This document shows positions 1 through 41,379 of a stretch of 64,000 nt of DNA, piece by piece (within the stretch, counting starts at the first letter, position 1; each line of letters opens with the position of its first letter). Source of the DNA: Eubacteriales bacterium (GTDB lineage: Bacteria > Bacillota > Clostridia > Oscillospirales > CAG-272); NCBI GenBank assembly GCA_045544955.1, contig JAZPZY010000065.1:64067-128066 (forward strand), written 5' to 3'. The position numbers were made by a program, and so were the translations under genes. The notes beneath the pieces are model-generated. The model was not told the DNA's origin. It saw nothing but the letters and a program-made list of their open reading frames with translations, and ran no database searches.

Positions 1-96
1 GCCGATCGGCACATGTTTATGCCCACTGCCGCCGGCATGGCAGGCAAGCCGTTCGCAGGCAGATCACGAAACGCTACAAAAGAAAGGATACTTCGT

Positions 97-1656: not shown

Positions 1657-2361
1657 TTATTCTCTTTCCGTTTTCAGAAATTCGCATACCGCCTGTGCCG
1701 ATTTGGCAGCGGCTATTTTCACAAAGGTGGGATAATCCATGGCGGCGTCCTCGTTTCCGCCGTCGGAAATGGCACGGATCACCGCAAAGGGAATCCCGTT
1801 TGCCGTGCAGACCTGCCCGATGGCAGCCCCTTCCATTTCGCAGGCAATGGCACCGAAGGTGTCCCGGATGTACACCTTTTTAGCGGATTCAGCAACGAAC
1901 ACGTCGCCGGATGCGATGACGCCCCGCAGGCACCGGGTGCCCCCACCGCCGATCACTTCGGCGATCCGGGCAGAAAGGGATTCGTCTGCCTTCATATACA
2001 CTACGTTGAGTCCGGAAATCAGTCCAACGGGATCTCCGATGGCGGAAGTATCCATATCGTGCTGGACCACGCTTTCCGCCACAGCAACGTCCCCGATGGA
2101 AAGTTTGTCCGTCAGCGTACCGGCCACACCCGTATTGATGATAGCACGCACGCCGTAGTGCAGGATCATGGTCTGAGCCGCCATGGCGGCAAACACCTTG
2201 CCCACGCCGCAAACGGACAGCACCACCGGCACACCGGAAAGCACGCCGGAAATGAACGTAAGTCCGCCCAGCGTTTCCGTTTTCCCGTTTTTGAGAGCGG
2301 CGGCAAGGGTGTCAATCTCCACACGCATGGCACCGATAATACCGATAGGACGATCAGTCAT
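1657..2361 (-). CDS. mtnN: 5'-methylthioadenosine/S-adenosylhomocysteine nucleosidase
   Basis: IGIIGAMRVEIDTL at the N-terminus, INTGVAG, and CEMEGAAIGQVC. Its start overlaps the luxS end by 8 nt. Confidence 0.9.
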   Translation of the reverse strand: MTDRPIGIIGAMRVEIDTLAAALKNGKTETLGGLTFISGVLSGVPVVLSVCGVGKVFAAMAAQTMILHYGVRAIINTGVAGTLTDKLSIGDVAVAESVVQHDMDTSAIGDPVGLISGLNVVYMKADESLSARIAEVIGGGGTRCLRGVIASGDVFVAESAKKVYIRDTFGAIACEMEGAAIGQVCTANGIPFAVIRAISDGGNEDAAMDYPTFVKIAAAKSAQAVCEFLKTERE

Positions 2362-4578: not shown

Positions 4579-5903
4579 TTACTTTCGGAAACAGAATAGA
4601 ACCCATAACGGACATGTACCTGATTGATGAAATGAAAAATCTCACTTTTAGGAAAGAACAGGCGACGTGCCACGGCAAAGTTATCGAATTCAATGCCCCC
4701 TGGGAAGGTCTGGGTTCCACCGGAACCAGCGTAGTACAAAACGGCAAAGAGATAAAGTGCTATTATCGCGGCTATCCCACGAAAGGCGGCGATCAGAACA
4801 CCAATCAGACCGCCTGTCTTGCGATCAGTGAAGACGGCATTCATTTTTCCCGCGTTCCCGTAAACCGCATCGATTACAACGGTATTGCGGAAAACAATAT
4901 CGTATATAAAGGAACGGAATGTCACAATTTCTGTCCCTTCTACGACACAAATCCCGACTGCCCCGAAGATCAGCGTTACAAAGCGGTAGGCGGCACCAAT
5001 CAGATCGGCGGTCTTTTTGGCTTCATCAGTGCAGACGGCATCCACTGGAAAAAGGTTTCTGACAAGCCTATCATTACCGCCGGCGATTTTGACACCATGA
5101 ACATGGCGTTCTGGAATCCGCACACCGGGCGCTACCACGCCTACTGCCGTTATCTGGATCATCGTCTGGGAGATCCCAGGATGCCCCACGGCTGCCGTGC
5201 CATCCACTCCTGTACCTCTCTCGATTTTCTAAACTGGACAGAGTTTACCGACAACGAATATGCAGAGGGCATGCCCACCGAACAGTTTTATACCAACGCC
5301 GCAAGACCGATCCCCGGGGCAGAGCATGTGCTTCTGTCCATGCCCATGCGATTTCAGGAAACACGAACAAAGCTGGACGATCACTCCCATCCGGGCTTAT
5401 CCGATGCGGTGCTTCTCACATCCCGGGACGGCGTATATTGGGATCGGATGCTGAAAGATGCATTTCTTGCCGGTGATCTGGAACCGCACGAATGGACACA
5501 GCGGAACTTCATCGTTTGCGGCGGACTTGCCGCCGTAGACGACCGCTTCTTCTTTTACGTACAAAAAAACTACATGTGGGAGGATTGCGGCATTTTCGCC
5601 TATTCCGTACCAAAGTACCGTTTTCTTTCTCTGTACGCCGATGCTTCCGGCGGTCAGTTCACCACGAAACCGCTGCAGTTTGTATCCGACGACGTATATC
5701 TGAATTACGCCACCTCCGCCTATGGAAATATAGAGATCACCGTCGCAGACGAAAAGGGGCAAACCGTTTTCTCCTCTGGGGAAATCTTCGGAAATGAACT
5801 CTCCCATCGGGTGCACATAGACGGACTTGCCGGGAAAAGCGGCACTATGACCGTCTCACTGAAGGAGGCACACCTGTACGCGCTCGGCAGTGCCATGATG
5901 TAA
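4575..5903 (+). CDS. Beta-propeller, glycoside-hydrolase-like protein of unknown specificity
   Basis: The real start is ATG 4575 (GAGGAGACAAAACC upstream) inside the 706-aa ORF. It overlaps the PnuC-like stop by 4 nt. Repeated blade-like motifs (ISEDGIHFSRV, ISADGIHWKKV, TSRDGVYWDRM) are followed by a beta-sandwich-like tail. Confidence 0.45.
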   Translation: MITFGNRIEPITDMYLIDEMKNLTFRKEQATCHGKVIEFNAPWEGLGSTGTSVVQNGKEIKCYYRGYPTKGGDQNTNQTACLAISEDGIHFSRVPVNRIDYNGIAENNIVYKGTECHNFCPFYDTNPDCPEDQRYKAVGGTNQIGGLFGFISADGIHWKKVSDKPIITAGDFDTMNMAFWNPHTGRYHAYCRYLDHRLGDPRMPHGCRAIHSCTSLDFLNWTEFTDNEYAEGMPTEQFYTNAARPIPGAEHVLLSMPMRFQETRTKLDDHSHPGLSDAVLLTSRDGVYWDRMLKDAFLAGDLEPHEWTQRNFIVCGGLAAVDDRFFFYVQKNYMWEDCGIFAYSVPKYRFLSLYADASGGQFTTKPLQFVSDDVYLNYATSAYGNIEITVADEKGQTVFSSGEIFGNELSHRVHIDGLAGKSGTMTVSLKEAHLYALGSAMM

Positions 5904-26082: not shown

Positions 26083-27450
26083 TTATTCTTGTACGATATT
26101 TCTTGCAACGTGTACGCCGCTGGCCGATGCGTGGGAGAGAGAATGGGTAATGCCGCTGCCGTCCCCGATAATATACAGCCCGGGATAACAGGTCTCAAGG
26201 TGGCTGTTGACCTCCACTTCCATATTGTAGAATTTGACCTCCACGCCGTACAGCAGAGTATCCTCGTTGGCAGTACCGGGAGCAACTTTATCAAGGGCGT
26301 AGATCATTTCCATAATGCCGTCCAGGATCCGCTTGGGAAGAACCAGGCTCAGATCGCCCGGTGTTGCACTCAGCGTAGGCGTTATAAACGCCTCGTTCAG
26401 CCGGCCGGGCGTCGTCCGCCGTCCCCGTATCAGATCGCCGAACCGCTGGACGATAACACCGCCGCCCAGCATATTACTGAGCCGGGCAATAGATTCGCCG
26501 TAGTCGTTGGAATCCTTGAAGGGTTCGGAGAAATGCTGTGCAACCAGAAGGGCGAAGTTGGTGTTTTCCGTCTGTTTTGCGGGATCCTCGTAGCTGTGTC
26601 CGTTTACGGTAATGATGCCGTTGGTATTTTCGTTTACCACCGCCCCCTTGGGGTTCATGCAGAAGGTTCGCACCTTATCGCCGTATTTTTCAGTACGGTA
26701 GACGATTTTGCTCTCGTACAGTTCGTCCGTCAGATGGGCAAACACGGCGGCGGGAAGCTCCACACGCACGCCCAGATCCACCCGGTTGGATTTGGTGGGA
26801 ATATCCAACTCCCGACACACCTTTTCCATCCACTTGCTTCCGCTTCGTCCCACGGACACGATACACGTATCGCAGGTATACATGGCATCCGCACATTTCA
26901 CCGCATAGCCGCCGGGAATGATCTTGATGCTCTGCACGGGGGTATCAAAGAAGAAATTCACCTTATCCTTCAGATACGCATACAGATTTTCCAGAACGAT
27001 ATAGTTTATATCAGTTCCCAGATGACGCACGGATGCGTCCAGCAGATGCAGATCGTTCTGAATGCAGAGCGTTTTGAACCGTGTACCGGCGGTGGAATAC
27101 AGCTTCGTCCCTTCCCCGCCGAACCGCAGATTGATGTCATCCACATAACGCATCAGATCCAGTGCCTGCGATTTTCCGATGTACTCATACAGCGTACCGC
27201 CGAAATCGTTGGTAATATTATATTTTCCGTCCGAAAATGCACCGGCACCGCCGAAACCGCTCATGATGGAGCAGCTTTTGCATCCGATACAGCTTTTCAC
27301 CTTGTCTCCGTCAATGGGACAGCGGCGTTTCTCCAACGCATGACCGGCCTCAAAAACGGCCACCTTCATATCCGGTTTATGCTGCATCAGCTCGTATGCG
27401 GCAAAAATACCGCCGGGTCCGGCCCCGATAATGATTATATCGTAATTCAT
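26083..27450 (-). CDS. FAD-dependent oxidoreductase (COG2509-like)
   Basis: Start at ATG 27450 (GGAGGTTTTT upstream). It has the dinucleotide fold YDIIIIGAGPGGIFAAYEL and a C-terminal GLYIIGDGSG. Confidence 0.75.
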   Translation of the reverse strand: MNYDIIIIGAGPGGIFAAYELMQHKPDMKVAVFEAGHALEKRRCPIDGDKVKSCIGCKSCSIMSGFGGAGAFSDGKYNITNDFGGTLYEYIGKSQALDLMRYVDDINLRFGGEGTKLYSTAGTRFKTLCIQNDLHLLDASVRHLGTDINYIVLENLYAYLKDKVNFFFDTPVQSIKIIPGGYAVKCADAMYTCDTCIVSVGRSGSKWMEKVCRELDIPTKSNRVDLGVRVELPAAVFAHLTDELYESKIVYRTEKYGDKVRTFCMNPKGAVVNENTNGIITVNGHSYEDPAKQTENTNFALLVAQHFSEPFKDSNDYGESIARLSNMLGGGVIVQRFGDLIRGRRTTPGRLNEAFITPTLSATPGDLSLVLPKRILDGIMEMIYALDKVAPGTANEDTLLYGVEVKFYNMEVEVNSHLETCYPGLYIIGDGSGITHSLSHASASGVHVARNIVQE

Positions 27451-27839
27451 AAAAACCTCCAAGCAGTAAAAAACAACGCAGGCAAAAAACGCCCTTGTGT
27501 TCTTCCCATTATACCATACATTCGACAAAGAATCAATCCGTACGCCAATATCCGTGCCGCAAAATCTTTTTTTCCTGTTACGGTGAAAGATTTATTTCGA
27601 TATAGGGATGATGCAGTAAAACCGACACGACAATTGCGAAAAAAGCAAAAAACACCTCTCTTCCCCGCCCGGCAACACCGGTGCCGCCCCGGACGAAATA
27701 CACTTGCAAGGCAGTGAGAGACAAGGAATCTCTCACTGTCTTTTCATAAAACGACCCCGCCGCAGCGGCACAAAAAGCCACTTTTTTTCTGTGCAGAAGC
27801 CGGCAAAAACCACCCTCTGAAAAAAGCAAAAATCTGCAT

Positions 27840-27869
27840 ACCGTTCGTTCCCTTCAGGATACCATTCGT
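27840..27869 (+). promoter_or_regulatory. LytTR/AgrA-type direct-repeat pair (9-12-9)
   Basis: ACCGTTCGT (27840..27848), a 12-nt spacer, ACCATTCGT (27861..27869). The pair sits inside a tandem 21/23-nt duplication at 27838..27881. Confidence 0.4.
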
Positions 27870-27897
27870 TCCCTCTTCAGGTAAACAGAAAAATATG

Positions 27898-27906
27898 TGA
27901 TATAAT
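27898..27906 (+). promoter_or_regulatory. Extended -10 element upstream of the giant surface-protein gene
   Basis: TGaTATAAT. The -35 position reads CAGGTA, which is a poor match. Confidence 0.4.
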
Positions 27907-27998
27907 TATGATGTAATTTTTTAGGTGCACCGTTTTATTACCGTTCGCTAACGTAAAGAAAAGGTGTGCCAAAGTACTTTTTCAGGAGGAACTATGCA

Positions 27999-30900
27999 AT
28001 GAAAAAGAGGCTTCTCAGCTGGCTGCTTCTCTTCTGTATGCTGTTCTCACTGCTCCCCGCTTCGGTGATGTCAGTGGTTGCGACAGAAGTAAAGAATGCA
28101 GTCGAAATGAACGTCAATCCTTTTCAGGATGTGAAAAAGGATGACTGGTATTACGATGCGGTACAGTATGCCCGCATCAACGGATTCTTTACCGGAATCA
28201 CAGAAAACACCTTCTCCCCCGCCGGCACCATGACCCGTGGTATGTTCGTCACGGTTCTTGGCCGCATGGCAGGAGTGGATGTGAATACATATTCGGGCGT
28301 GTCCGCCTTCTCGGACGTTCCGCTTTCGGCATATTACGCCCCCTACGTTCAGTGGGCAGCCAAATACGGAATTACCAATGGCACCGGCGGCGACACATTC
28401 TCGCCCGATATGATGATCACCCGCCAGCAGATGGCAGTGTTCTTCGTTCGGTATTTTGAAGAGTTCGGCGTCAACTATCAGACGGGAGCCGGCGTTACCT
28501 CCGTGCCCATGGATTTCTCCTCCGTGGCAGATTACGCCCAGCCTGCCGTTCTGAAGCTGTGGTCCAACGGTTTGATGAACGGCGACGGCGTGAATTTCAA
28601 TCCCGGAAATAACGCCAGCCGTGCGGAAGCCGCCACGCTGTGCATGCGTACGGACCGGGCGATTCCCGCATGGAACAAGGAACCAGGCGTTCTCAGCGAT
28701 CGGGTAAGCATTGCGTATCCGCCCGTGGAGGATTCCTCTTCTGAGACGCCTCCCGTGCCCAGTGATACGCCCACCGGCACGACTCCCGTGCAGCCTAACG
28801 GATGGACTTCCAGCCTCTGGCCCGGCTACATACCTTCCTGGAGCCAGACGGACTGCCAGGTTACCTTCATCACCAACGGCGGACAGGCGCTGAATCCGAA
28901 AGTGGTGCAGAAAGGAACACTGGTTTCCGCCCTGCCCACGCCGTACCGCGAGGACTTTATCTTTACCGGCTGGTATTACGATAACGCTTTGACGAAGCTG
29001 GCGGCGGAAAACGATGTCATCTCCTCGGACGTAGTTCTTTACGCAGGCTATTTGCAGACGGAAAAGCTGACGCCGGTGGAATCTCCCACCTTCGCTTCGG
29101 CTACGGACGTTGCCTCTGACTTTACTGTTGTTTTGTATTCCACGGATCCCACCCTCACCGCACAGCAGGTGCAGAGCGCCATTGAGGTGGAAGTGGTTGC
29201 CGACAGCAGCCAGACCGATCTGTTCGTGGTCATGGGCGGCGGCGGCGTTTACACCGTATCCGGCAACGGCGGTTTTGACGCCGGTAAGACCTTCCGGGTC
29301 ACCCTGCACGACACGCGGCTGACCTTCAAGGATCAGCTTGCAACGGTCCGCGAGTTCAACTTCACCACGAAAAAAGAGCAGGTCATGAACCTGACCGTGG
29401 CCAAGGGCATGCTGTATATCCATATGGATGAGATCAGCAATATCGTAAACGACGGTAAGGCAGTTCAGTCTCTGAGCATCGCCCTGTACGAGGCAGAGGT
29501 TGACGGCACCGTAGGCCCGGCCGATCTGACCGTGGGCAGCTTTACGTATAACGGTCCCCTTACCTTGCAGGTAGGTGACGTGGCGGCCGTTTACGCCGGA
29601 CTGCGTCCCGATCTGCGTACGCTGGAAAGCACCAGTGAGGAAAACGGCGACCTTGCGTACGTAGAGATCATCGACGTTACCGGAAACCGTATCAGCTATA
29701 AGAACGCCACGGCAGAGCAGGTTATCTTTACGCCGGACGTTTTGCCGATCCCCGTGGAAAACGATCTGGATACGGCTATGGATACGGTCACGCTCCAGAA
29801 CAAATATCTTGATTTCTCCGCAGACGTGTATGCCAACATGGATCTGGATTCCCAGACCACGGTGGACGTGGGCGACTATCTGCTCCTCTACACGGGTGTG
29901 ATCGGCGAGAACGAAATGCTGGTCGGCTACGGTGAGATCCTGGGCGTTTCCACTATCGATGAAGTAACCGTTATCACTTATATCCCCGTTACCTGGGAAG
30001 ACGTACAGAGTGCCATGGACGTGTACGTGCAGAATCAGGTGCAGGGCTCCGAAGTGCTGGAAGGCGTGGATGTTGCACACCTGGAATCAGCCGTGGAGCA
30101 GCAGGCCATCGACAGCGGATTTGCCGAAGAGGCCGCTCTGTATCTGGCGTCTCTGGCATTGGCAACCGACAGCTTCACCCAGTGGAAGGATGACGTCAAC
30201 CTGAACGACGTCCGCTTCACACTGGATGACGGCTCGCCGCTTTCTCCCGAAGAGATCCGTCTGATGGCCGGGGGCAACAAGGTAAAGGTGGAGAGAGAAA
30301 AACTGAAGGCCTCCATCTCCACGCACCTGCAGCATTTTGAAGGATACTCGGGCCTTCGTCTTACTTTGGACGTGGGCATCAAGATCACGATCACTCCCAG
30401 TGAAAACATCGACGGTGCTCTGGTGATCACCGTAACCGGCTCCTTCGAGCAGGAGATGCGTATTGCCATCGGTGCCTCCAGTGAAGCCGTGTGGAAGGTA
30501 TGGGGCATTTTCCCCTATATCGCCGAATATCGTGTAACCGCCAACGTTGACCTCTTTGACTACACCGGTATCGAGATCGAAGCACAGATGATCACCGCGG
30601 AAAAAGAGGACGACGAGGACGAAGACGATAAAAAGGACGACGATAAAAAGGAATCCAGCGGCAACGCAAAGGTAGACGCCATCACCGAGAAGATCAACAA
30701 AGGCATCGACATTGCCAAGCAGATCAAGGAGATCCTCGATACCAAGGAAGAGGAAGACGGTGAAGGCAAGGACGACGGCGCCGAGACCATCAATAACGCT
30801 CTCCAGAAAAAGTATAAGGAAATGCTGGAAAGCGAAGCCGAATGGGTCAACCTGATCGAAAAAGAGCTGGTGAAAAAGGAACTCCACACGCCGCCCATGC

Positions 30901-33900
30901 TGCCGATCATTGCCATCAAGTTTGCGGCAACGTTCGTCGTGCAGGTGAAGGCAAGCGTTTCCGTGGGCTTTGACTTTGAGTACGTAAACGGAAAACGGTA
31001 TGTGTATCACGTCAACGTATTTGCCGGCAACATCAGCAATGACGTTATCGATATTCAGGAAGAAACGTACGAATTTACCTTCTACGCCATGGGCCATCTG
31101 GGCATCAAGGCTGGTGTTGAGGTGGAGTTCGCCATCGGACTTCTGTCCACGGAGATCGCCTCGGTCGGCTTTACGGCAGAGGCCGGTGTGTACGCCAAGC
31201 TGTGGGGTTACTTCTACTACGAGCTGAAGTACACAGCCTCCAAGGGACGGTCACAAAGTTACAGCGGTGCACTTCTCATTGAGGTGGGCGCCTATCTGGA
31301 ACTCAACTTCAAAGCCAGTGCCGCCGGCGGTCTTGCCACAAAGGAGATCAAACTCCTTGATAAGGAATGGCCGTTCTGGAGCATAGGTAAGGAGGACTGC
31401 GTTCAGGACTTCGTAACGCCCAAGGAAGAAATACAGGAGATAAAACTGAAGCAGTACATCAGATCCACGGTTCTTTCCAACGATCTGTTCAAGATGTCCT
31501 ATCTGGATATGAAGGACGGCGACATGAAGTCGGCCGTTTACAGCGACGAGACCCGCTTTGTCATCTCCATTGATAACGACGCATTCGCGTACGATCCCAA
31601 GACCAATACCCTCAGCGTAACGCCGCCTGCCGGCTCCGTAAAGGAAGAGGGTACCATGACCGTTACGTGGATCGCTTATCCGCTGGCGTTCACCTCCAAG
31701 CCGATCCAGCGTGAGTTCCCTCTCTATTGGGATAACCTGCGTGACGGTTACGTCATCGTGCCCTATACCAACGGCGGTTCCTATATCCCGATCATCAACC
31801 AGCGGTACGACACCCTTGTAAACGTACCGGCCGATCCGAAAAAGGACGGCTACGTATTCAGCGGCTGGTTCGCTGACAGCGATCTTACCACCTCGTACGT
31901 ATGGCCCGTGATGATGCCTAACACAGATGCCAACGTGTACGCCGGATGGCTCCCCTCCACGAATACGCCCTATACGGTAGAGCACTATCAGCAGATCCTC
32001 GGCACGCCCGATTACGAGCTTGTGCGGGCACTGGATCTGACCGGTACCACGGATGAAACGGTCATCCCCGGCACGGAATCCTACGTGGGCTATATCACCC
32101 CTGCCGCAGAAGAGCTGGTGATCCTGCCTGACGGCAGCGCCGTACAGCGTTACTACTACGATCTGCAGACACATACCGTCACCTTCGATCCCGGTATCGT
32201 AGGCGGCGATACGGTCAGCTACGAGTTGGACTTCGGCGGCCGTATTACGGTTCCCCAGTTTGCCGCCAAGGGATATGTCTTCCTCGGCTGGGATAAGGAG
32301 ATCCAGCCTACCATGGGCGAGTCCGACGTGGTCTACACTGCCCAGTGGATGGAAGATCCCGCTACCACTTACCGTGTTGAGTATTACGTACAGCAGCCGG
32401 ACGGCCGCTACGTAATGCAGGAATTCACCGCCTATAACGGCACAACCGGCGACGTTCTTACGGAAGCGATGCTCCGCTTCGGTGCCGTTTTGCCCAACGG
32501 CAACGGTGAACTGATAAATGCAGAGGCACGCTTCGCAGTGCCCGGCGGCGTTTCCTTCAAAAATATTACCGTATCCGGCGAGGATCTCACCGCCAAGGGC
32601 GAGAACCCCACCGTGCAGGCAAACGGTAAAACGGTTATCAAGGTCAACTATCAAAGAGCCACTTACGATCTGATCTTTGATACGGCAAACGGCGACGCAC
32701 CGCTGATATACGACGTGTATTACGGTGCCTCCGTCAGTCTCCCCGAAAACGTACGCCGTCAGGGCTACGCCTTCGCAGGCTGGACGCCGGCCTTTGCCGA
32801 TATCATGCCCGCACAGGATATGTGCTACACCGCCCAGTGGCAGGCGAACGATTATACCGTTTCCTTTGACGCAAACGGCGGTATCGGTGTCATGGACGCA
32901 CAGCCCATGGTATACGACGTTCCCACCATGCTGTATCCCAGCACGTTCGTCCGCACCGGCTATGACTTTACCGGCTGGTCCGTCCTCAAAAACGGCAGCA
33001 TCCGCTACGGAAACGGCGAAGCCGTCACCAACCTTGGTTCGGAAAAGGGCGAAAACGTAGTGCTGTACGCAGCCTGGACGCCTACCCAGTACAGCATAAC
33101 CTACAACAACTCCCTGGCACACGAAAATCCGCTGACGTATACTATCGAATCCTCTGCCATCAGCCTGATGGATCCGGACGATAAGGAAGGCTATACCTTC
33201 ACCGGCTGGTTTACCACGCCCGATCTGTCCGGCACGCCTGTGGAAATGATCGAGGAAGGCAGCCACGGCGATATCGTTCTGTACGCCGGATACGTTGCCA
33301 ATCCGTATGAGATCCGCTTCCACGCAAACGGCGGCGTGGGCGATATGCAGAATCTGCCCATGGTCTATGACCGGCAGCAGAACCTGACACCCAACGGCTT
33401 TATCCGCCTCGGCTACACCTTCATGGGCTGGGCAAGATCCGCTGAAGGCTCCGTGATCTATACTGACGGCGATCCGGTGCTCAATCTGGAAAGCACGCCC
33501 GGCAAAACGGTGAATATGTACGCCGTATGGAAACTGAACACCTACTCCCTCCAGTACGTGACGGGCGGCGGTGTGAACGCATCCGGCAACCCCGGAGAGT
33601 ATACGGTTCTTGATACGGTTATTCTCTCCGAGCCCACCAGAACCGGTTATACCTTTGCCGGCTGGTTCACCGAAACGGGTACGCCCGTCGCACAGATCCC
33701 GGCAGGCACTACGGGCAATCTGGTGCTGTATGCACAGTGGAACGCCAATACCAATACGCCTTACGCCGTGGAGCATTATCTGCAGGATCTCCACAAGGGT
33801 ACGTATACGCTTGACAAGCGGGAGATCTTCACCGGCACCACCGATACGGTGATCACACCCGCAGTCAATACCTACGAGGGATTCCGCGCCCCCGTACAGC

Positions 33901-36900
33901 AGACCGTCACCGTATCGCCCGACGGCTCGCTGGTGGTACAGTACATGTATACCAGACTGTCCTTCGCACTGACCCTGCACTTCGAGGATGGCGTGACGCC
34001 GTCTCAGACTATCGCTGACGAGTACGGTGCACCCATTACTCTGCCCGTTCCCGTAAGAGACGGCTACGGCTTTGCCGGCTGGTATCTGGCAAACGGCACG
34101 TCCGTGACCGCCAACACCATGCCCGCCATGACGGAAACGCTCTTCGCACGCTGGAACGCCGGCGAGTACGGCTATACCGTCTACCACTACCGGCAGGAGC
34201 TGGACGGCAGCTACAAGCTGTTTGATACCGTAACCGGCACGGCCATGATGGACAGCGTCCTTACGCTGGACGTAAAGACGTACGAGGGATTCACCTCGCC
34301 CGTGCCCGAGAGCATCACCGTCACCAGCAGTGCGGATAAGAACGTAGTGGAGTACCGCTACACCAGAAATCAGTATACGCTGCTTTGGGACTTCGCCGGC
34401 GGTACGCCGAACGGTACGTATACCTACGGCACGGTCAGCTACGGTGCTCCCATTACGGCACCCACCGTTCTGAAGCCCGGTTATACCGGACAGTGGAACG
34501 AACAGCCCGTGCAGACTATGCCTGCGGCAGATCAGGTGTACGTGATGAACTGGACGGCCAACAAGTATACCGCAAACTTTGATCTGGGCAACGGAACGGT
34601 TCTGGAGAGCAGACCGGTCACCTTCGGTCAGCCCTACGGCACGCTTCCCGCACCGGAAAAGGCAGGATATACCTTTACCGGCTGGTATGCGGATCCCGTG
34701 ACGGGCACGGAAGTGACGGCTGCGACGGCAGTGAACACGCCGGCAGATCATACGCTGTACGCCCGTTGGGAGCTGATCTCCTATCCCATCAGCTACAACG
34801 TAAACGGCGGCACCAACGCATCGCAGAACCCGTTCGTCTACAACGTGGAACAGCTGATCGTCATCAAGGCACCCATCCGTGAAGGACACACCTTCCTCGG
34901 CTGGACCTGGGACGGCCAGACGGAACCCATGGAGGACGTGATTCTTGACCGTGCAACCGGCGCCCGTACCTATACGGCTCACTGGCAGATCAACACCTAC
35001 CGGGTGACCTTCTACCGTGAAAACGGTACGCTGATTCTGGGACAGCAGCTGGATTACGGTGCAGCCATCCCCGTACCGGATCCCGGCTTCCGTGACGGCT
35101 ACACCTTCGGCGGCTGGGGCGCCACCGTTCCCGCCACCATGCCCGCACAGAATCTGAACTTCATCACCCAGTGGAATCTGAACACCTATCCCATCCGCTA
35201 TATGCTGAACGGCGGTGAAAACCATCCCGACAACGCAGCCTTCTACACGTCGGAAAGCCCGGATATCGAGTTTGCAGATCCCACACGCAAGGGCTATACC
35301 TTCGACGGCTGGTACTCGGATGCGGCGTTCACCACGCCTGCACAGCCCATTGCGGCCGGCAGCGTCGGTGAGGTCATCCTCTTTGCCAAGTGGATCCCCA
35401 ACACCTACACCGTCAAGATGCACCTGAACAACAATACGGCGGACGTTCTGACGCAGACGTTCACCTTCGGCGTCCGTGACGCACTGACCAGACACACGGC
35501 AACGCTGGAAGGATACAGCTTCGTAGGCTGGGCAACGGAAGCAAACGGCGAAGCCATCTACACCAACGGCGCAAGACTGCAGGATCTGACCGACGAACAG
35601 AACGGTACGGTTCACCTGTACGGCATCTGGGAACCCGTAGTCTATACCGTTTCCTACCATAACCTGTTTGAAGCACAGAACAACCCGCTGAACCCCGCCG
35701 CCTTCACCGTGCAGAACAATACGCTGGTGATCCTGGATCCGATCGGTCAGCGTGTGGGCTATAACTTCGCAGGCTGGTACGCCGACGAAATGCTGACCAA
35801 TCCCATTACCGGCAGCTATACCGTAAACGGCGCGTACAACGTCAACATCTACGCCAAGTGGAACGCCAATCCCTACTCCGTCACCTTCAACAATAACCTC
35901 CGTGACGGCAGTGCACTGGGTACTTCCACGCAGCTGATGGTTTACGGCTCCAACACCAACCTGAAGCCGTTTGAGGAAATGAACTTCTACTATAAGGGAC
36001 ATACGTTCCTCGGCTGGCATACCGATCCCAACGCCACCGCTCCGCTGTATACAAACGGTCAGCTGGTGAGCAGCCTGACGCCCAGCGGCAACATCACCCT
36101 GTACGCCATCTGGAGCGTGAACGAGTACGCCATCAACTACAATATCGGCACCGGTGCAACGGTACACCTGAATCCCGGCAGCTACAACGTATGGACCGAT
36201 GATATTCTGCTGCAAAATCCCGTGGATATCAAGGCCGGCTATCAGTTCCTCGGCTGGTTCGACGATAACGGCAACCGGGTAACGGAAATCGTGAAGTCCA
36301 GCATCGGCGACAGAAGCTATACCGCCAAGTGGGCACACGCCGGTATCTTCACGCTGAGCAGTACGGTCAGCAAGGCAAACGATACCACCGGTATCAAGGT
36401 GATCTATACCATCGAGCGCACGCTGCCCGCCGGTACGGAGGCAATCGCCGACCCGCAGCACGTCTACTACCGCACCGTGAACGGTACGGCTTACGGCGGC
36501 ACCGCCGCACGTATCCACTTCCTCCACGTGGGCGGCCCGGACGTATACGCAACGTTCGATAAGAACACCTTCACGAAGACCTTTGAGGTTCGCCAGGTTG
36601 GCTACTGGACGGGCGATAAGAAGGTGGAAAGCTACACCAACGGTACGGACCGTTACTTCCACGTGGAATTGTACGACGTGGTTGACACGGTAAATCGCGA
36701 TATGGCAGGACAGCTGGGAAGCAGCATCAAGAACAAGTACACCATCGCCCAGGGAGATAACTACGAGATCACGTCTTCTATCTATAACTGGGCGGAGTAC
36801 GACATCATTCCCGACGGAACCAGTTATACCATTACCGATGCGGGCTATGATAAGAATACTTCCAAAACCTTCAACCCGATGTCCGGCTATACGGAAGGGC

Positions 36901-37577
36901 AGAAGCAGTATGCTAACGCCGTCGGTTTGAATCTCGCCCTGCACCTGGATGTCTGGGCTGCGGAGAAGAACGACGGTTACCAGTGGCTCAGACTGACGGG
37001 CAACGGTTCTACATTGGAAGAAGTGCACGTGGAGTTGAAGAGTGGCAAGAAATGCACAGATTGGCTCTATTTCCAGCTGCCGATTACATCCACACAGTAT
37101 TATAACGGTACGGATATATCTGTTGATTCCCGTCCTACCAGCGGCAGTACTGTAACAAGGGACAACGTAACGTGTCTCCGGATTCCGCTTCTTTCCTCTG
37201 TAACCCTGGGCCTCGATGCATCGGGCGATAACGAAGATCACTGGTACATCGGACACACCTCCTTCAGACGGTACCTGATCGATACCGCCGAACCCAAGCA
37301 GACCGGTATGGCACCCATGGCATTCGGTACGTACAAGGCAGGCGATACGGTAACGGTTACCGTACTGTATAACGAGATCGTTGCCTCCGGTTCAAACCTC
37401 GGCATCGGCAGTATCTCCGGCATGCCTGTAAGCAACTGGCAGTTTGTATCCGGCTACGGCACGAACGCTTTGACCTTCACCGGTACGGCTACCGCAGAGT
37501 TCAACGTGCTTCCGGAAAGCAACGACAAATGGATGCCCCTGAAACCTGTTACCGGTTCTGTCTACGACATGAACTGA
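27999..37577 (+). CDS. Giant SLH-anchored cell-surface protein (about 3,190 aa) with Listeria-Bacteroides-type and MucBP-like repeats
   Basis: - **Start and signal:** ATG 27999 (AGGAGGAACT upstream), signal peptide MKKRLLSWLLLFCMLFSLLPASVMSVVA.
- **SLH domains:** three modules at about 28.1-28.7 kb (FQDVKKDDWYYDAV, FSDVPLSAYYAPYV, FSSVADYAQPAV).
- **Listeria-Bacteroides-type repeats:** at least 18 units with the G(Y/H)xFxGW core (GYVFSGWF, GYTFTGWF, GYNFAGWY ...).
- **MucBP-like units:** four (YTVEHYQQ, YAVEHYLQ, YTVYHYRQ, YRVEYYVQ).
- **Low-complexity stretch:** D/E/K-rich, at about 30.60-30.79 kb.
- **C-terminus:** a distinct region of about 420 aa with a Calx-beta-like block (VYYRTVNGTAYGG). 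Confidence 0.85.
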   Translation: MKKRLLSWLLLFCMLFSLLPASVMSVVATEVKNAVEMNVNPFQDVKKDDWYYDAVQYARINGFFTGITENTFSPAGTMTRGMFVTVLGRMAGVDVNTYSGVSAFSDVPLSAYYAPYVQWAAKYGITNGTGGDTFSPDMMITRQQMAVFFVRYFEEFGVNYQTGAGVTSVPMDFSSVADYAQPAVLKLWSNGLMNGDGVNFNPGNNASRAEAATLCMRTDRAIPAWNKEPGVLSDRVSIAYPPVEDSSSETPPVPSDTPTGTTPVQPNGWTSSLWPGYIPSWSQTDCQVTFITNGGQALNPKVVQKGTLVSALPTPYREDFIFTGWYYDNALTKLAAENDVISSDVVLYAGYLQTEKLTPVESPTFASATDVASDFTVVLYSTDPTLTAQQVQSAIEVEVVADSSQTDLFVVMGGGGVYTVSGNGGFDAGKTFRVTLHDTRLTFKDQLATVREFNFTTKKEQVMNLTVAKGMLYIHMDEISNIVNDGKAVQSLSIALYEAEVDGTVGPADLTVGSFTYNGPLTLQVGDVAAVYAGLRPDLRTLESTSEENGDLAYVEIIDVTGNRISYKNATAEQVIFTPDVLPIPVENDLDTAMDTVTLQNKYLDFSADVYANMDLDSQTTVDVGDYLLLYTGVIGENEMLVGYGEILGVSTIDEVTVITYIPVTWEDVQSAMDVYVQNQVQGSEVLEGVDVAHLESAVEQQAIDSGFAEEAALYLASLALATDSFTQWKDDVNLNDVRFTLDDGSPLSPEEIRLMAGGNKVKVEREKLKASISTHLQHFEGYSGLRLTLDVGIKITITPSENIDGALVITVTGSFEQEMRIAIGASSEAVWKVWGIFPYIAEYRVTANVDLFDYTGIEIEAQMITAEKEDDEDEDDKKDDDKKESSGNAKVDAITEKINKGIDIAKQIKEILDTKEEEDGEGKDDGAETINNALQKKYKEMLESEAEWVNLIEKELVKKELHTPPMLPIIAIKFAATFVVQVKASVSVGFDFEYVNGKRYVYHVNVFAGNISNDVIDIQEETYEFTFYAMGHLGIKAGVEVEFAIGLLSTEIASVGFTAEAGVYAKLWGYFYYELKYTASKGRSQSYSGALLIEVGAYLELNFKASAAGGLATKEIKLLDKEWPFWSIGKEDCVQDFVTPKEEIQEIKLKQYIRSTVLSNDLFKMSYLDMKDGDMKSAVYSDETRFVISIDNDAFAYDPKTNTLSVTPPAGSVKEEGTMTVTWIAYPLAFTSKPIQREFPLYWDNLRDGYVIVPYTNGGSYIPIINQRYDTLVNVPADPKKDGYVFSGWFADSDLTTSYVWPVMMPNTDANVYAGWLPSTNTPYTVEHYQQILGTPDYELVRALDLTGTTDETVIPGTESYVGYITPAAEELVILPDGSAVQRYYYDLQTHTVTFDPGIVGGDTVSYELDFGGRITVPQFAAKGYVFLGWDKEIQPTMGESDVVYTAQWMEDPATTYRVEYYVQQPDGRYVMQEFTAYNGTTGDVLTEAMLRFGAVLPNGNGELINAEARFAVPGGVSFKNITVSGEDLTAKGENPTVQANGKTVIKVNYQRATYDLIFDTANGDAPLIYDVYYGASVSLPENVRRQGYAFAGWTPAFADIMPAQDMCYTAQWQANDYTVSFDANGGIGVMDAQPMVYDVPTMLYPSTFVRTGYDFTGWSVLKNGSIRYGNGEAVTNLGSEKGENVVLYAAWTPTQYSITYNNSLAHENPLTYTIESSAISLMDPDDKEGYTFTGWFTTPDLSGTPVEMIEEGSHGDIVLYAGYVANPYEIRFHANGGVGDMQNLPMVYDRQQNLTPNGFIRLGYTFMGWARSAEGSVIYTDGDPVLNLESTPGKTVNMYAVWKLNTYSLQYVTGGGVNASGNPGEYTVLDTVILSEPTRTGYTFAGWFTETGTPVAQIPAGTTGNLVLYAQWNANTNTPYAVEHYLQDLHKGTYTLDKREIFTGTTDTVITPAVNTYEGFRAPVQQTVTVSPDGSLVVQYMYTRLSFALTLHFEDGVTPSQTIADEYGAPITLPVPVRDGYGFAGWYLANGTSVTANTMPAMTETLFARWNAGEYGYTVYHYRQELDGSYKLFDTVTGTAMMDSVLTLDVKTYEGFTSPVPESITVTSSADKNVVEYRYTRNQYTLLWDFAGGTPNGTYTYGTVSYGAPITAPTVLKPGYTGQWNEQPVQTMPAADQVYVMNWTANKYTANFDLGNGTVLESRPVTFGQPYGTLPAPEKAGYTFTGWYADPVTGTEVTAATAVNTPADHTLYARWELISYPISYNVNGGTNASQNPFVYNVEQLIVIKAPIREGHTFLGWTWDGQTEPMEDVILDRATGARTYTAHWQINTYRVTFYRENGTLILGQQLDYGAAIPVPDPGFRDGYTFGGWGATVPATMPAQNLNFITQWNLNTYPIRYMLNGGENHPDNAAFYTSESPDIEFADPTRKGYTFDGWYSDAAFTTPAQPIAAGSVGEVILFAKWIPNTYTVKMHLNNNTADVLTQTFTFGVRDALTRHTATLEGYSFVGWATEANGEAIYTNGARLQDLTDEQNGTVHLYGIWEPVVYTVSYHNLFEAQNNPLNPAAFTVQNNTLVILDPIGQRVGYNFAGWYADEMLTNPITGSYTVNGAYNVNIYAKWNANPYSVTFNNNLRDGSALGTSTQLMVYGSNTNLKPFEEMNFYYKGHTFLGWHTDPNATAPLYTNGQLVSSLTPSGNITLYAIWSVNEYAINYNIGTGATVHLNPGSYNVWTDDILLQNPVDIKAGYQFLGWFDDNGNRVTEIVKSSIGDRSYTAKWAHAGIFTLSSTVSKANDTTGIKVIYTIERTLPAGTEAIADPQHVYYRTVNGTAYGGTAARIHFLHVGGPDVYATFDKNTFTKTFEVRQVGYWTGDKKVESYTNGTDRYFHVELYDVVDTVNRDMAGQLGSSIKNKYTIAQGDNYEITSSIYNWAEYDIIPDGTSYTITDAGYDKNTSKTFNPMSGYTEGQKQYANAVGLNLALHLDVWAAEKNDGYQWLRLTGNGSTLEEVHVELKSGKKCTDWLYFQLPITSTQYYNGTDISVDSRPTSGSTVTRDNVTCLRIPLLSSVTLGLDASGDNEDHWYIGHTSFRRYLIDTAEPKQTGMAPMAFGTYKAGDTVTVTVLYNEIVASGSNLGIGSISGMPVSNWQFVSGYGTNALTFTGTATAEFNVLPESNDKWMPLKPVTGSVYDMN

Positions 37578-37590
37578 TTCCATGAAAAAA

Positions 37591-37616
37591 GAGATGCCGG
37601 AGAGATCCGGCATCTC
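37591..37616 (+). other. Stable hairpin without a U-tract between the giant gene and the S8 protease gene
   Basis: GAGATGCCGG-agagat-CCGGCATCTC, 14 nt after the stop codon. Confidence 0.6.
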
Positions 37617-37638: not shown

Positions 37639-38466
37639 ATGAAACGATACGTGGCTGTTCTGCTTTTGGCGGTACTGCTGCTTTGCTCCTGTACCCCCGG
37701 TAAAACGAGCCTTCCGGCTGAAACCGGCACCGAAACCACCCCGGCACAAACGACCGCCGCCCCGTTAAGGACGGTACGCGTGGCGGTGATCGATACGGGC
37801 TTTTCGCCCCACGCCATCCCGGCGGAAAACGTAGGCGAGGGAAAAAACTACCTCTTGCCCGATGAAACTACGGCGGATACCTACGGGCACGGCACGGCGG
37901 TAGCCTCCGTGATACTTGACAATGCGGAAAGCGTCCTTCTGATCCCCCTGGTCAGCAACGTATATAATAAAGGAAAGGTTTCCTTTGTGGACAACGACAC
38001 CTTTGGACAGATGATCCGGGACGCAGTGGACGTGTACGAATGTGAGATCGTCAATATCAGTGCCGGCCTCGTGCTGGATAAGCCTGCGGTGCGTGAAGCC
38101 GTGGCCTATGCGGAAGAAAAGGGCGTCCTGATCGTGGCCTCTGCCGGCAATGATTACCGGGAAAATCCGGGGCAGATCTACTATCCCGCCGCCTATGAAA
38201 CGGTACTTGCCGTAGGATCCCTTACGGCAGACGGCACGGCGGTATCGGATTTTTCCCAAAGAGGCGATTGGGTGGACGTGTTCGCCCCCGGTGAGGACGT
38301 TCCCATCCGTACGCTGAGCGGCGGCCAGCGTACCGATAAAGGCTCCTCCTATGCCGCGGCCCGGATCACGGCGGCGGCGGTAACGCTTCTGCAAAAAGAG
38401 GAGAATCTGACTCCCGCCGAGCTGCGTGAGCGGTTGTGCGAAAAAGGCAACCCGGAAACGGAATAA
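37639..38466 (+). CDS. S8 (subtilisin-family) serine peptidase, probable lipoprotein
   Basis: Start at ATG 37639 (GGAAGGAG upstream). It has a lipobox-like LLLCSC. The catalytic residues are D in VAVIDTGFS, H in YGHGTAVASV, N in VNISAGL and S in KGSSYAAARI. Confidence 0.8.
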   Translation: MKRYVAVLLLAVLLLCSCTPGKTSLPAETGTETTPAQTTAAPLRTVRVAVIDTGFSPHAIPAENVGEGKNYLLPDETTADTYGHGTAVASVILDNAESVLLIPLVSNVYNKGKVSFVDNDTFGQMIRDAVDVYECEIVNISAGLVLDKPAVREAVAYAEEKGVLIVASAGNDYRENPGQIYYPAAYETVLAVGSLTADGTAVSDFSQRGDWVDVFAPGEDVPIRTLSGGQRTDKGSSYAAARITAAAVTLLQKEENLTPAELRERLCEKGNPETE

Positions 38467-38473
38467 AAAAAGA

Positions 38474-38505
38474 ACAGACGCCCCATGGGCGTCTGTCCTT
38501 TTTTT
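38474..38505. terminator. Bidirectional terminator between convergent genes
   Basis: ACAGACGCCC-cat-GGGCGTCTGT, flanked by A7 and T7. Confidence 0.8.
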
Positions 38506-39769
38506 ACAGAATCACTCTCGTGATGAAAACGGAATCCTTCACGGTGAACTGGCAGTTGCCTCCCAGCTTCTCCGTCATATAGCGGATGCTCCGGGTGCCG
38601 TATCCGTGCCCTTTTCGCGTGGTGACGGGCATGCCGTCCACAAACGCCGGCTCCTTCTCCACGGGATTTTTCACTGAGAACAGCAGTTTTCCTTCCGCAT
38701 CCCGAAGCATAAGCGATACCTCCCGCTTTTCCTTGGGAAGCTCGGCCACAGCGTGCAGCGCGTTATCCAGGGCATTGGACAGAATGGAGGAGAACAGAAT
38801 CTCGTTGGTGCGAATTTCCCCAACCTCCACCTTATGTATGAATTTCACTTCGTTTGCCTTGCATTTGGCATCAAAATCGGACAAAACGTAGTTTACCGTA
38901 TCGTTTGTGCAGAAACGCAGGATCTTCGTACCGTCCACGTGCTCGGAGTACGACTTTATCATTCCCTGCACCACGGATTTTTCATCTGTTTCGATACAGA
39001 CGGCCAGCGTACTCAGAAACAGCCGCAGATCGTGGCGGAGAACCCGGATCTCATGCTCACTCCGTTTCATCGCATCCAATTCCTTGGCCTGCTGCTCCAC
39101 CGTCAAGCGGATGATTTCTTCTTTCCGTTCTGCTTCGAACTTTTCTTCATACTGTCTGTAATACACAAAGCAGAACACAATGAATATGACACTGATGAAG
39201 AACGGCAGAAATTCAACAGCGATCTGGTTCTTCGTAAGCCACACGTCCGTATACACCACCGTGGCATAATCAAACACGTAATAAATGAAAGGAACAACGG
39301 CAAACACGTATACGCTCCCCGCATCGCCGGAAAAGAATTTGGAAAGTGTACGCATAAAGAACATGCTCGTTATAATATAAACAAGAATCAAAACGGAAAT
39401 CCGCACGGCATATTCAAGAACAGCATCGGAAAGTATCGTATTGACCAGCACACCAAACCACTTGGCAGGCTGACAGCAAAGATAGGCAGTAAAAACGGAA
39501 ACCAGTGCGGTAGGAAAAGATTTCCTGAAAAAGAACACAAACAAAAGCAGCAGCGGCAGATGCGTGATTATCGGATACATCTTCCACACAAAGGGCTCAT
39601 CAAACACCGCCAGCAGAATTCCCTGGGCAGCCATGCTGCAGCCGCTGAAAACCAGCAGGAAAAGTATGTTCTTCCGCGTGAAAGGGATACCGGCAAAGCC
39701 GGCAGAAACAAAGATGCCGAACATAAGAACGATAAAGGCATGACACAGCATCAAAATAAACGCAGCCAC
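38504..39769 (-). CDS. AgrC-like (HPK10, GHKL) sensor histidine kinase
   Basis: A polytopic N-terminal half of about 200 aa with 5-6 TM segments. N-box SILSNALDNALHAV and G-box TTRKGHGYGTRSI. The GTG start overlaps the regulator's stop by 1 nt. Confidence 0.8.
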   Translation of the reverse strand: MAAFILMLCHAFIVLMFGIFVSAGFAGIPFTRKNILFLLVFSGCSMAAQGILLAVFDEPFVWKMYPIITHLPLLLLFVFFFRKSFPTALVSVFTAYLCCQPAKWFGVLVNTILSDAVLEYAVRISVLILVYIITSMFFMRTLSKFFSGDAGSVYVFAVVPFIYYVFDYATVVYTDVWLTKNQIAVEFLPFFISVIFIVFCFVYYRQYEEKFEAERKEEIIRLTVEQQAKELDAMKRSEHEIRVLRHDLRLFLSTLAVCIETDEKSVVQGMIKSYSEHVDGTKILRFCTNDTVNYVLSDFDAKCKANEVKFIHKVEVGEIRTNEILFSSILSNALDNALHAVAELPKEKREVSLMLRDAEGKLLFSVKNPVEKEPAFVDGMPVTTRKGHGYGTRSIRYMTEKLGGNCQFTVKDSVFITRVIL

Positions 39770-40491
39770 TACGCATCACCAAACTTTCCAAAGGTCAACT
39801 CAAAAAACGCCGTCTCAAAATCCTTCTGGCAATTTCTCGAAATGGGTATACGGCATCCGGATTTCATCGTGATTTCCCTGGCTGTATACCGGCTGATCTG
39901 AAACACGTTTACAATATAGCTTCGGTGGCACTTCAGAAAACCGCTTTGTGCCGTGAATACATTTTCATACGAGTAAAACGGTTTCAGAGAAGAAAGGGTC
40001 GTACCGTCCGTCAGAACGAAATTTACGTGTTTTCCCTGCGCCTCCACGTATTCCACCTTCCGAAGCTCCACACGGCGGACGGACACAGCGTCCCTGATAA
40101 GAATGTATTCCGCCCGATCCGCCATATCTTCGTACAGTTCATCGAGGCACTGACACATTTTCTTTTCATCGACGGGCTTCAAAAGATAACCGTCCGCGTG
40201 TACCGCATAGGAATCCACCGCAAACTCGGCGGAGGACGTAAGAAACACGATCTTCACCGTCTTATCCGTCCGGCGTATTTCTGCTGCGGCATCCAACCCG
40301 CTCACAAGCGGCATTACCACATCAAGGAAAATGATATCAAACGGATTTTCTCCGTGTGCTTCTATCAGAGAATCCGCATCGCTGAAAAGCTCCACCGTCA
40401 CGTTGTCCGATGCGGCGTGCCACCGGGAAATCATCTCGCTTGCCGTTCTCTGAAAGGCATACATATCATCGCAAACAGCAATTCTTACCAA
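39769..40491 (-). CDS. LytTR-family response regulator (AgrA-like)
   Basis: Receiver domain (IAVCDD ... IIFLDVVMPLVSGLD) plus a LytTR domain (VEYVEAQGKHVNFVL ... FLKCHRSYIVNVFQI). TTG start. Confidence 0.85.
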   Translation of the reverse strand: MVRIAVCDDMYAFQRTASEMISRWHAASDNVTVELFSDADSLIEAHGENPFDIIFLDVVMPLVSGLDAAAEIRRTDKTVKIVFLTSSAEFAVDSYAVHADGYLLKPVDEKKMCQCLDELYEDMADRAEYILIRDAVSVRRVELRKVEYVEAQGKHVNFVLTDGTTLSSLKPFYSYENVFTAQSGFLKCHRSYIVNVFQISRYTAREITMKSGCRIPISRNCQKDFETAFFELTFGKFGDA

Positions 40492-40520: not shown

Positions 40521-40550
40521 ATTATACCGCAAGCCGGCACTTTTTGTCAA
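40521..40550 (-). promoter_or_regulatory. Promoter of the two-component operon
   Basis: On the minus strand: TTGACA (40550..40545), 18 nt, TATAAT (40526..40521). Confidence 0.6.
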
Positions 40551-40581: not shown

Positions 40582-41379
40582 CTACTTCTTCCAACTTGGT
40601 TTCCGCGTAATGCTGTAACCGTAATACTTCTTGAACAGCCGGCTTACGTAATTGGGATCTCTGTAACCGAAAAGCACAGCCGCCTCGTACAAGCGGAAAT
40701 CTTCCTTTTCCACAAGGGTTCGGATGGCCGCCAGTTTCTCGGTGTTCACGTACTTTATAAAAGAAACGCCTTCGTTTTTCTTAAAAATAGAGCACAGGTA
40801 TTCCGGCGATATCCCCAGATGCTCCGCCACGCTCTTCTCGGTAATAGGCAATTGAAGATTGCTTTGCACGTACTCCTTGGCACGGCGGGTATACAGCACT
40901 TCACTTGGCAGATTGAGTTTTTTATCCCTTCGGTTGCAGTAATCGATCTCACAGAGCAGTTCCAGAAAAGCAGACGCACCCCGGGTAGGCGAATCCTTAA
41001 AAAGAAGTTGATTGCGTATCAGCTGCTCAATGATGTTTTCGGCTTTTTTCGTGCCGAGTTCAGCTGCGGTTATAATGGGAAGATACAGTCCGTTTGCGTT
41101 GTCCTGCACCCTCCATTTGAACTGAGCCATCACGGTGCGATGCTCGTGATAGGCATCCGCACGGACCTTAATCTCATGGGGACAGCGGGGCACACACATA
41201 AGATCGCCTTTATTTGCCACGTATACTTTTCCGTCATATTCGATGGTGGTTCCCCCCTCCGTTAGGATCGCAATCTCCATGCTGTCTGCCCTGATGTTAA
41301 GAGTTCGGCTATACGCATCCGCGTGATATACATGGGCAAATATCACCTGCGGCATCGTTTCCACCTCAACGGTCTGCAA
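40582..41379 (-). CDS. AraC-family regulator (cupin plus HTH)
   Basis: PITEKSVAEHLGISPEYLCSIFKKNEGVSFIKYVNTEKLAAIRTL and FGYRDPNYVSRLFKKYYG. An alternative start is ATG 41355. Confidence 0.85.
   Translation of the reverse strand: MQTVEVETMPQVIFAHVYHADAYSRTLNIRADSMEIAILTEGGTTIEYDGKVYVANKGDLMCVPRCPHEIKVRADAYHEHRTVMAQFKWRVQDNANGLYLPIITAAELGTKKAENIIEQLIRNQLLFKDSPTRGASAFLELLCEIDYCNRRDKKLNLPSEVLYTRRAKEYVQSNLQLPITEKSVAEHLGISPEYLCSIFKKNEGVSFIKYVNTEKLAAIRTLVEKEDFRLYEAAVLFGYRDPNYVSRLFKKYYGYSITRKPSWKK

Follow-up and report, generated by a model that had tools for sequence, protein, structure and literature searches.

Sites for LytTR regulators generally consist of two imperfect direct repeats of 9-11 nt with a spacer of 11-13 nt (PMC4847170). 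For AgrA of Staphylococcus aureus the consensus is a pair of [TA][AC][CA]GTTN[AG][TG] direct repeats, 12-13 bp apart and upstream of the -35 element (PMC5600425), and the agr promoters are suboptimal without their activator (PMC4227749). Promoters of the ComE system of Streptococcus pneumoniae follow the arrangement [box]-N11-[box]-N42-TSS, with the first base of the site at -77 to -73 (PMC6560143). AlgR of Pseudomonas aeruginosa binds the core CCGTTCGTC (PMC4064291), and the E. coli regulator YpdB, also of LytTR type, binds the direct repeat GGCATTTCAT in the yhjX promoter (PMC4847170). Repression from start-proximal or downstream sites has been reported for both AlgR (PMC4064291) and AgrA (PMC4227749). 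Among the papers that our literature search returned, none describes LytTR control of SLH surface proteins.

Here we describe a pair of 9-mer boxes in front of a giant surface-protein gene in a 64,000-nt stretch of DNA, which we refer to as the window (Table 1). We give a probability of roughly 0.78 to the reading, drawn from comparative sequence data, that the 9-mers are the operator for the phosphorylated form of the LytTR regulator encoded in the window, which would activate the extended -10 promoter of the giant gene, a promoter without a -35 element. As in ComE and BlpR promoters, the boxes are imperfect direct repeats with a spacer of 11-13 nt; in those promoters they stand at a fixed distance from the start. 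If transcription starts 7 nt past the -10 element, the first base of the distal box is at -73, and the geometry of the window promoter would be that of ComE-activated promoters. The ComE system also resembles the window in that a LytTR regulator is paired with a polytopic kinase of the HATPase_c_5 type. The box sequences differ (ACCRTTCGT in the window, ACADTTGAGR in ComE promoters), as do the targets, a giant SLH surface protein as opposed to competence or bacteriocin genes. Unlike the ComE system, that of the window has no adjoining peptide pheromone gene or exporter and its two-component operon is not autoinduced; its regulator is not detectably near ComE in sequence.

Other described systems share parts of this design. 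The AgrA-dependent P2 and P3 promoters likewise carry consensus repeats 12-13 bp apart upstream of the -35 position (PMC5600425), but their core defect is an over-long spacer between -35 and -10, whereas the window promoter combines an absent -35 with an extended -10. The sequence CCGTTCGT within the distal box matches the AlgR core at 8 of 9 positions; many AlgR sites are single, lie far from the promoter on either side and can face either way, in contrast to the strict tandem pair at a fixed -10 distance in the window. In the orthologous locus of a congeneric genome (G006, described below), the distal box with its 5' flanking base, TGCATTTCAT, matches the YpdB motif at 9 of 10 positions, although YpdB belongs to a LytS-type pyruvate-sensing system, unlike that of the window.

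Boxes and promoter of the giant gene

Table 1. Features in and around the giant-gene promoter and the neighbouring two-component operon, numbered from the first base of the window.
Feature	Position	Strand	Basis or remark
Tandem 21-nt unit, two copies, holding both boxes	27833-27853 / 27854-27874	+	Repeat search; 18/21 identical
Duplication halves ATACCGTTCGTTCCCTTCAGG and ATACCATTCGTTCCCTCTTCAGG	27838-27858 and 27859-27881	+	Sequence
Distal 9-mer box ACCGTTCGT	27840-27848	+	About -73 to -65 from predicted start
Proximal 9-mer box ACCATTCGT	27861-27869	+	About -52 to -44 from predicted start
-35 slot CAGGTA	27878-27883	+	17 nt ahead of TATAAT; 2/6 against TTGACA
Extended -10 TGaTATAAT (TGATATAAT)	27898-27906	+	Sequence
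Predicted transcription start	27913-27914	+	Inferred, 7-8 nt past the -10
Third box TACCGTTCGC, 5' leader	27939-27948	+	Repeat search; about +27 to +35
Target gene, 3192-aa surface protein	27999-37577	+	Pfam; ATG and RBS read from sequence
GC-rich hairpin without U-tract, between giant and protease genes	37591-37616	+	Sequence
S8 subtilase lipoprotein gene	37639-38466	+	Pfam Peptidase_S8, 111 bits
Bidirectional terminator between convergent operons	38465-38505	.	Sequence
Histidine kinase, about 6 transmembrane helices	38504-39769	-	RHDLR H-box and GHKL HATPase_c_5 (PF14501)
Response regulator, REC and LytTR domains	39769-40491	-	Pfam, 68 and 53.6 bits
Two-component operon promoter TTGACA-18-TATAAT, boxless	40521-40550	-	Sequence

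An earlier sequence-only reading had placed a LytTR-type pair of 9-mers within a tandem duplication upstream of an extended -10 element, and its coordinates for all of these proved correct when the sequence was re-read. The two 9-mers are separated by exactly 12 nt and are identical at 8 of 9 positions; the consensus that it had used agrees with the published one (PMC5600425), and we confirmed the fit at 9/9 positions for the distal box and 8/9 for the proximal box. The 9-12-9 arrangement falls within the general repeat and spacer lengths of LytTR operators given above. The inter-box spacers of the two units are also similar (TCCCTTCAGG / TCCCTCTTCAGG).

The pair ends 31 nt ahead of TATAAT, and the -35 slot between them matches TTGACA at two of six positions; the start of transcription that serves as our reference point is a prediction. 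A consensus scan of 27300-28100 returned no other sigma-70-like promoter on the plus strand, which bears out the previous description of this extended -10 as the sole promoter element, with a poor -35. An Rfam scan of 27400-28100 returned nothing real; its one match, to an IRES model, scored 10.6 bits where the threshold is 40 bits. Since an extended -10 is present but no usable -35, efficient initiation by RNA polymerase would depend on the bound regulator. As extended -10 promoters can function without a -35 element, a basal level of transcription that does not need the regulator may also occur. The gene-less gap of about 300 nt upstream of the boxes contains a 14-bp hairpin on the plus strand (AAGGCAGTGAGAGA / TCTCTCACTGTCTT, then TTTTC; 27708-27742), which is terminator-like with nothing obvious to terminate and may insulate the regulated promoter.

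The repeat search also located a third box in the 5' leader, absent from the sequence-only reading, in which the exact 9-mer TACCGTTCG occupies 27939-27947; ACCGTTTTA lies just ahead of it at 27929-27937. As TACCGTTCG occurs just 38 times genome-wide on both strands, a third copy so near the pair is improbable by chance. This box, on the same strand as the pair, and an extended -10 that is good enough to be strong by itself together make a repressive or modulating role possible, in which the site would be a true LytTR site and the regulator would mainly repress or fine-tune a self-firing promoter, with the third box serving to block or loop. The reports on AlgR and AgrA cited above offer a parallel. 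We judge this unlikely: the pair occupies -73 to -44, ahead of the stretch that polymerase covers, and sites so placed activate in ComE, BlpR and AgrA promoters; hardly any homologous promoter has a good -35 slot; and the third box has no counterpart in G006 or any other homologous promoter examined. Activation from the upstream pair is the reading that we carry forward.

The start of the giant gene was placed at ATG 27999, which follows the ribosome-binding site AGGAGG (27984-27989) and replaces the GTG at 27966 given by the ORF finder. By Pfam, the protein has a signal peptide, three SLH domains and at least 15 Listeria-Bacteroides (Flg_new) repeats. The S8 protease gene that follows is probably co-transcribed with it; its lipoprotein product has a mycosin-like NCBIfam match that scores under the cut-off of that model. 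An orthologue of the protease was found in G006 (48% identity; L055 2581-3390), and the 85 other related loci yielded none. Since it occurs in the window and G006 alone, the protease gene lies outside the conserved cassette described below.

The kinase and its LytTR regulator

The kinase is of the polytopic AgrC/ComD-like type. Pfam confirmed that the regulator, encoded close to the boxes, is the single LytTR protein of the window, as had been claimed, and it is one of two in the genome. The claim that it lies about 2 kb past the giant gene was right as to proximity, and the distance is corrected here to 2.2 kb from stop to stop. In an alignment of seven regulators (A1), D8, D9, D57, T85 and K105 are invariant, and the phospho-acceptor residues of the regulator are conserved. 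The best NCBIfam match of the regulator is BtsR, at 82 bits against a cut-off of 246 bits, and the protein is far under the LytR cut-off too; it has no named equivalog. A search of solved structures with the regulator retrieved receiver domains and one LytTR domain (3d6w, E = 7.7e-5); neither AgrA nor ComE was among the matches.

The sequence-only reading had called the system AgrCA-like, which holds for the types of protein but not for the circuit. A search of the 96%-complete genome for the AgrB family (PF04647) gave no match, and beside the two-component operon, where AgrD was sought, there is neither room nor an ORF for AgrB or AgrD. The operon runs from its own consensus promoter, which carries no boxes; the composite scan described below gives no second match in the window, and autoinduction of the agr kind is absent. 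Regulator homologues elsewhere also have -35/-10 promoters of their own. We therefore rejected an agr quorum-sensing unit on the absence of a detectable AgrB and on the boxless promoter of the two-component operon.

Two other proteins of the genome could in principle recognise the repeat. The first is a second LytTR regulator on contig C29, 31% identical to that of the window; its system (C29:106459-111651) comprises a kinase of 218 aa that lacks a membrane domain (SPOB_a and HATPase_c_5), followed by two ABC-transporter-like genes of about 630 aa. The presence of two REC-LytTR proteins, and the documented cross-recognition between ComE and BlpR (PMC6560143), would be in keeping with binding by the C29 regulator, or by both through cross-talk. 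We regard this as quite improbable, as in more than 70 loci the element accompanies homologues of the window regulator and its kinase, and the C29 system adjoins its two transporter-like genes, with the sole nearby box-pair match inside one such long ORF.

The second is the product of an AraC-family gene (40582-41379) that adjoins the two-component operon. Activators of this family recognise direct repeats of about 21-bp periodicity that abut the -35 element, and the 21-bp period of the window repeat could on that basis be an AraC/XylS-type site. A homologue of this protein occurs in 0 of 86 homologous loci, which include the best 80 of 583 relatives, as against a kinase homologue adjoining the regulator in 83 of the 86; in G006, a lipoprotein-like gene, and not one of the AraC family, occupies the position upstream of the regulator. 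On this lack of co-occurrence we rejected the AraC neighbour as the regulator, a reading that we find scarcely credible. The kinase-linked LytTR regulator remains the preferred binder.

The element in related loci

A DNA search in 60 relatives found an orthologue of the giant gene in G006, within the genus; the remaining matches were SLH coding sequence, and copies of CCTTACCGTTCGTACC in L015 were set aside as irrelevant, being apparent coding sequence. G006 carries the giant gene, S8 protease, kinase and regulator on one contig in the same order as the window, with 79% nucleotide identity for the giant gene and 77% and 72% amino acid identity for regulator and kinase. The sequence-only reading had proposed to look for the boxes in relatives that keep both the gene and the two-component system, and G006 does retain the 9-12-9 pair, 31 nt from TGTTATAAT (GCATTTCAT-12-TCCTTTCAT-31-TATAAT). 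The two promoters differ in box sequence, and their flanks cannot be aligned, but the 21-nt period and the 31-nt distance are identical.

Other regulator homologues from the whole-genome search (G007, G095, G097 and G118) are 33-43% identical and show comparable arrangements, such as ACCGTTCAG-13-ACAGTTCAC-32-TATAAT and CCAATTCGC-12-ACATTTCGC-31-TAAAAT, intergenic and beside the regulator gene. A composite pattern, NC[AC]NTTC[AG]N-12/13-same-27..34-TAnnnT, had exactly one match per locus in six of seven regulator-homologue loci, again intergenic beside the regulator. This pattern was written after several of the sites had been seen, so cleaner tests were needed. With alignment A1 we drew another 80 loci from public genomes, the best 80 among 583 relatives. 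Applied unchanged to this independent set, the composite pattern gave five matches in 0.89 Mb. Four of these are on the strand opposite to the regulator gene, 65-115 nt upstream of it, and the fifth immediately follows the kinase gene. We also scanned the whole 12.7-kb loci, on both strands and with no positional prior, with a 9-mer matrix from the first six loci. Its best pair fell inside the 120-nt stretch upstream of the regulator in 11 of 16 non-Collinsella loci among the best 80 of 583 relatives, where the chance of this is about 0.5% per locus. The elements of L136 and L138 were added by manual reading.

The element that emerges is [9-mer NCMNTTCRN]-12/13-[9-mer]-31 nt-[TGnTAnnnT] with no usable -35, found once each in 19 Clostridia-type loci. 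The distance from proximal box to -10 is 31 or 32 nt in 17 of these promoters (29 and 33 nt otherwise). In about 14 the -10 carries a TGn extension, and in 17 the -35 slot shares 0-2 of six positions with TTGACA. The boxes are thus kept in G006, in 17 further Clostridia-type loci with regulators 33-60% identical and in 53 Collinsella loci, counts to be read in the knowledge that the loci are phylogenetically non-independent. At 33-60% regulator identity, neutral intergenic DNA would be expected to lose such spacing. Conservation of the element in G006 and the 17 further loci supports the original proposal of a LytTR operator before a promoter of the activator-dependent style.

In the 53 Collinsella loci (among the best 80 of 583 relatives), where the 9-12-9 pair alone was checked, the arrangement is NCCRTTYGY-12-GCAACTCGC, about 66 nt from the regulator start. 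As these loci carry the box pair beside the regulator, the same cassette appears to be present in Actinomycetota. The Collinsella pairs (L066-L133) point away from a regulator that is about 41% identical to that of the window; each of three promoters that were read faces a gene, and two of the three genes encode signal-peptide proteins. Two Clostridia-type loci show variations on the arrangement. In L062 (Oscillospiraceae, ~1900-2125, minus strand), a 9-12-9 pair lacks a recognisable -10 at 31 nt and is followed by a gene whose product begins MCTAVCF and is N-terminal-cysteine-hydrolase-like, not a surface protein. In L060 (~5800-5840, minus strand), the closest relative outside the genus, a tandem of two GTATAATTTACTTGG copies leads to two -10 hexamers 15 nt apart, downstream of the boxes.

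The genes downstream of the element encode secreted proteins, many of them very large, including six SLH homologues of the window giant. L060, from Candidatus Flemingiibacterium, has a regulator 60% identical to that of the window and, directly divergent from its gene, a giant with three SLH domains and Flg_new repeats that shares 61% identity with the N-terminus of the window protein. SLH homologues also occur in L134, L136, L138 and G007, and three of them sit behind a small membrane-protein ORF. This ORF of about 100 aa, with one N-terminal hydrophobic helix and then a charged region, precedes the SLH giant in L047 (G007:C246; ~190-510), L136 (~5330-5800) and L138 (~5450-5800), all on the minus strand, and is missing in the window and G006. 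Elsewhere the element faces a Flg_new protein (L061) or CBM_X2 giants (L063 and L065). The target in the window is 9.6 kb away and tail to tail with the two-component operon, and most homologous loci are divergent. From this comparison, the target in the window and G006 appears to have been turned tail to tail, the boxes having moved with the target promoter and not with the regulator gene.

Genome-wide uniqueness and proposed function

Loose-consensus pairs with up to one mismatch occur three times in the window against 0.73 expected, so a consensus match is weak evidence by itself, and we rejected it as proof of a site. The exact pair ACCRTTCG-N10-15-ACCRTTCG has no second occurrence in the 2.69-Mb genome, and tandem 21-nt units at 18/21 identity or better occur in seven places, four of which are heptamer arrays. 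These arrays (TTCACTC / TTCACTA / TTCACTT; C1:8163, C20:1978, C26:21880 and C67:11586) also score as box pairs. The anatomy of the window site is unusual, and the consensus match alone is insufficient for its interpretation.

The promoter geometry proved to be part of the signal. The composite pattern has one match in the 5.4 Mb of strand of the genome, the window site. A genome-wide motif scan, suggested with the original proposal, did not single out the site by its boxes: with a cross-family matrix the window pair ranked 25th, which is why we count the geometry as part of the signal. The box-only matrix was rejected as a genome-wide detector for lack of specificity, its top match, on contig C29, having no -10 at the required distance. 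The scan succeeded once the extended -10 geometry was added. With a matrix of 34 boxes from 17 loci, the window and G006 excluded, and TGnTAnnnT required at 30-32 nt, the window site headed the ranking for the whole genome at 16.4 bits, the runner-up scoring 11.5. Further regulon members in the genome were limited to four weak candidates of 10-11.5 bits, none convincing; one of the four has a TTGACA box of its own and two are inside long open frames.

These results also bear on whether the repeat could be a functionless 21-nt slippage duplication with a chance likeness to a loose consensus. The abundance of loose-consensus pairs would fit such an origin, as would the alike spacers of the two units, which are what a recent duplication leaves behind. 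We nonetheless find it very improbable, since period, orientation and -10 distance are kept in G006 and in distant loci despite differing box and spacer sequences, and since a model trained elsewhere ranks the site first in the genome.

Taken together, the data suggest the following model for the LytTR operator reading, in which binding by the regulator, the point where transcription starts, a positive and not a repressive effect, and the joint transcription of giant and protease genes are inferred. The six-helix kinase would sense a cue and phosphorylate the regulator, a dimer of which would bind both 9-mers at about -73 to -44 and recruit RNA polymerase in the style of ComE, BlpR and AgrA. 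This would switch on the SLH/Flg_new giant gene and probably also the S8 lipoprotein protease gene, while the two-component operon itself would run from its constitutive-looking consensus promoter with no autoinduction.

A further idea, which we consider rather unlikely, is that the locus represents an undescribed, pheromone-less "orphan" cassette of kinase, LytTR regulator, rigid 9-12-9-31-TGnTAnnnT promoter and giant secreted protein, in which the surface protein cues its own kinase. From the loci surveyed, its range would be gut Clostridia (Oscillospiraceae, Tissierellia and Lachnospiraceae) and Collinsella. If this were true, the kinase could be responding to envelope state or to a fragment that the co-transcribed S8 lipoprotein protease frees, and the adhesin would be under envelope-feedback control, not cell-density control.

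The current view of how LytTR regulators act is unchanged by these findings, and the recurring cassette is the more interesting by-product. For an uncultured gut or rumen Oscillospiraceae lineage, the site is a concrete candidate switch for a 3,192-residue SLH-anchored protein. The spacing rule of 9-12-9, then 31 nt to an extended -10, offers a search key for targets of this regulator subfamily. As the promoter design recurs beside related two-component systems in more than 70 genomes, a switch confirmed for the window would serve to annotate an entire class of regulated giant surface-protein genes across gut anaerobes.
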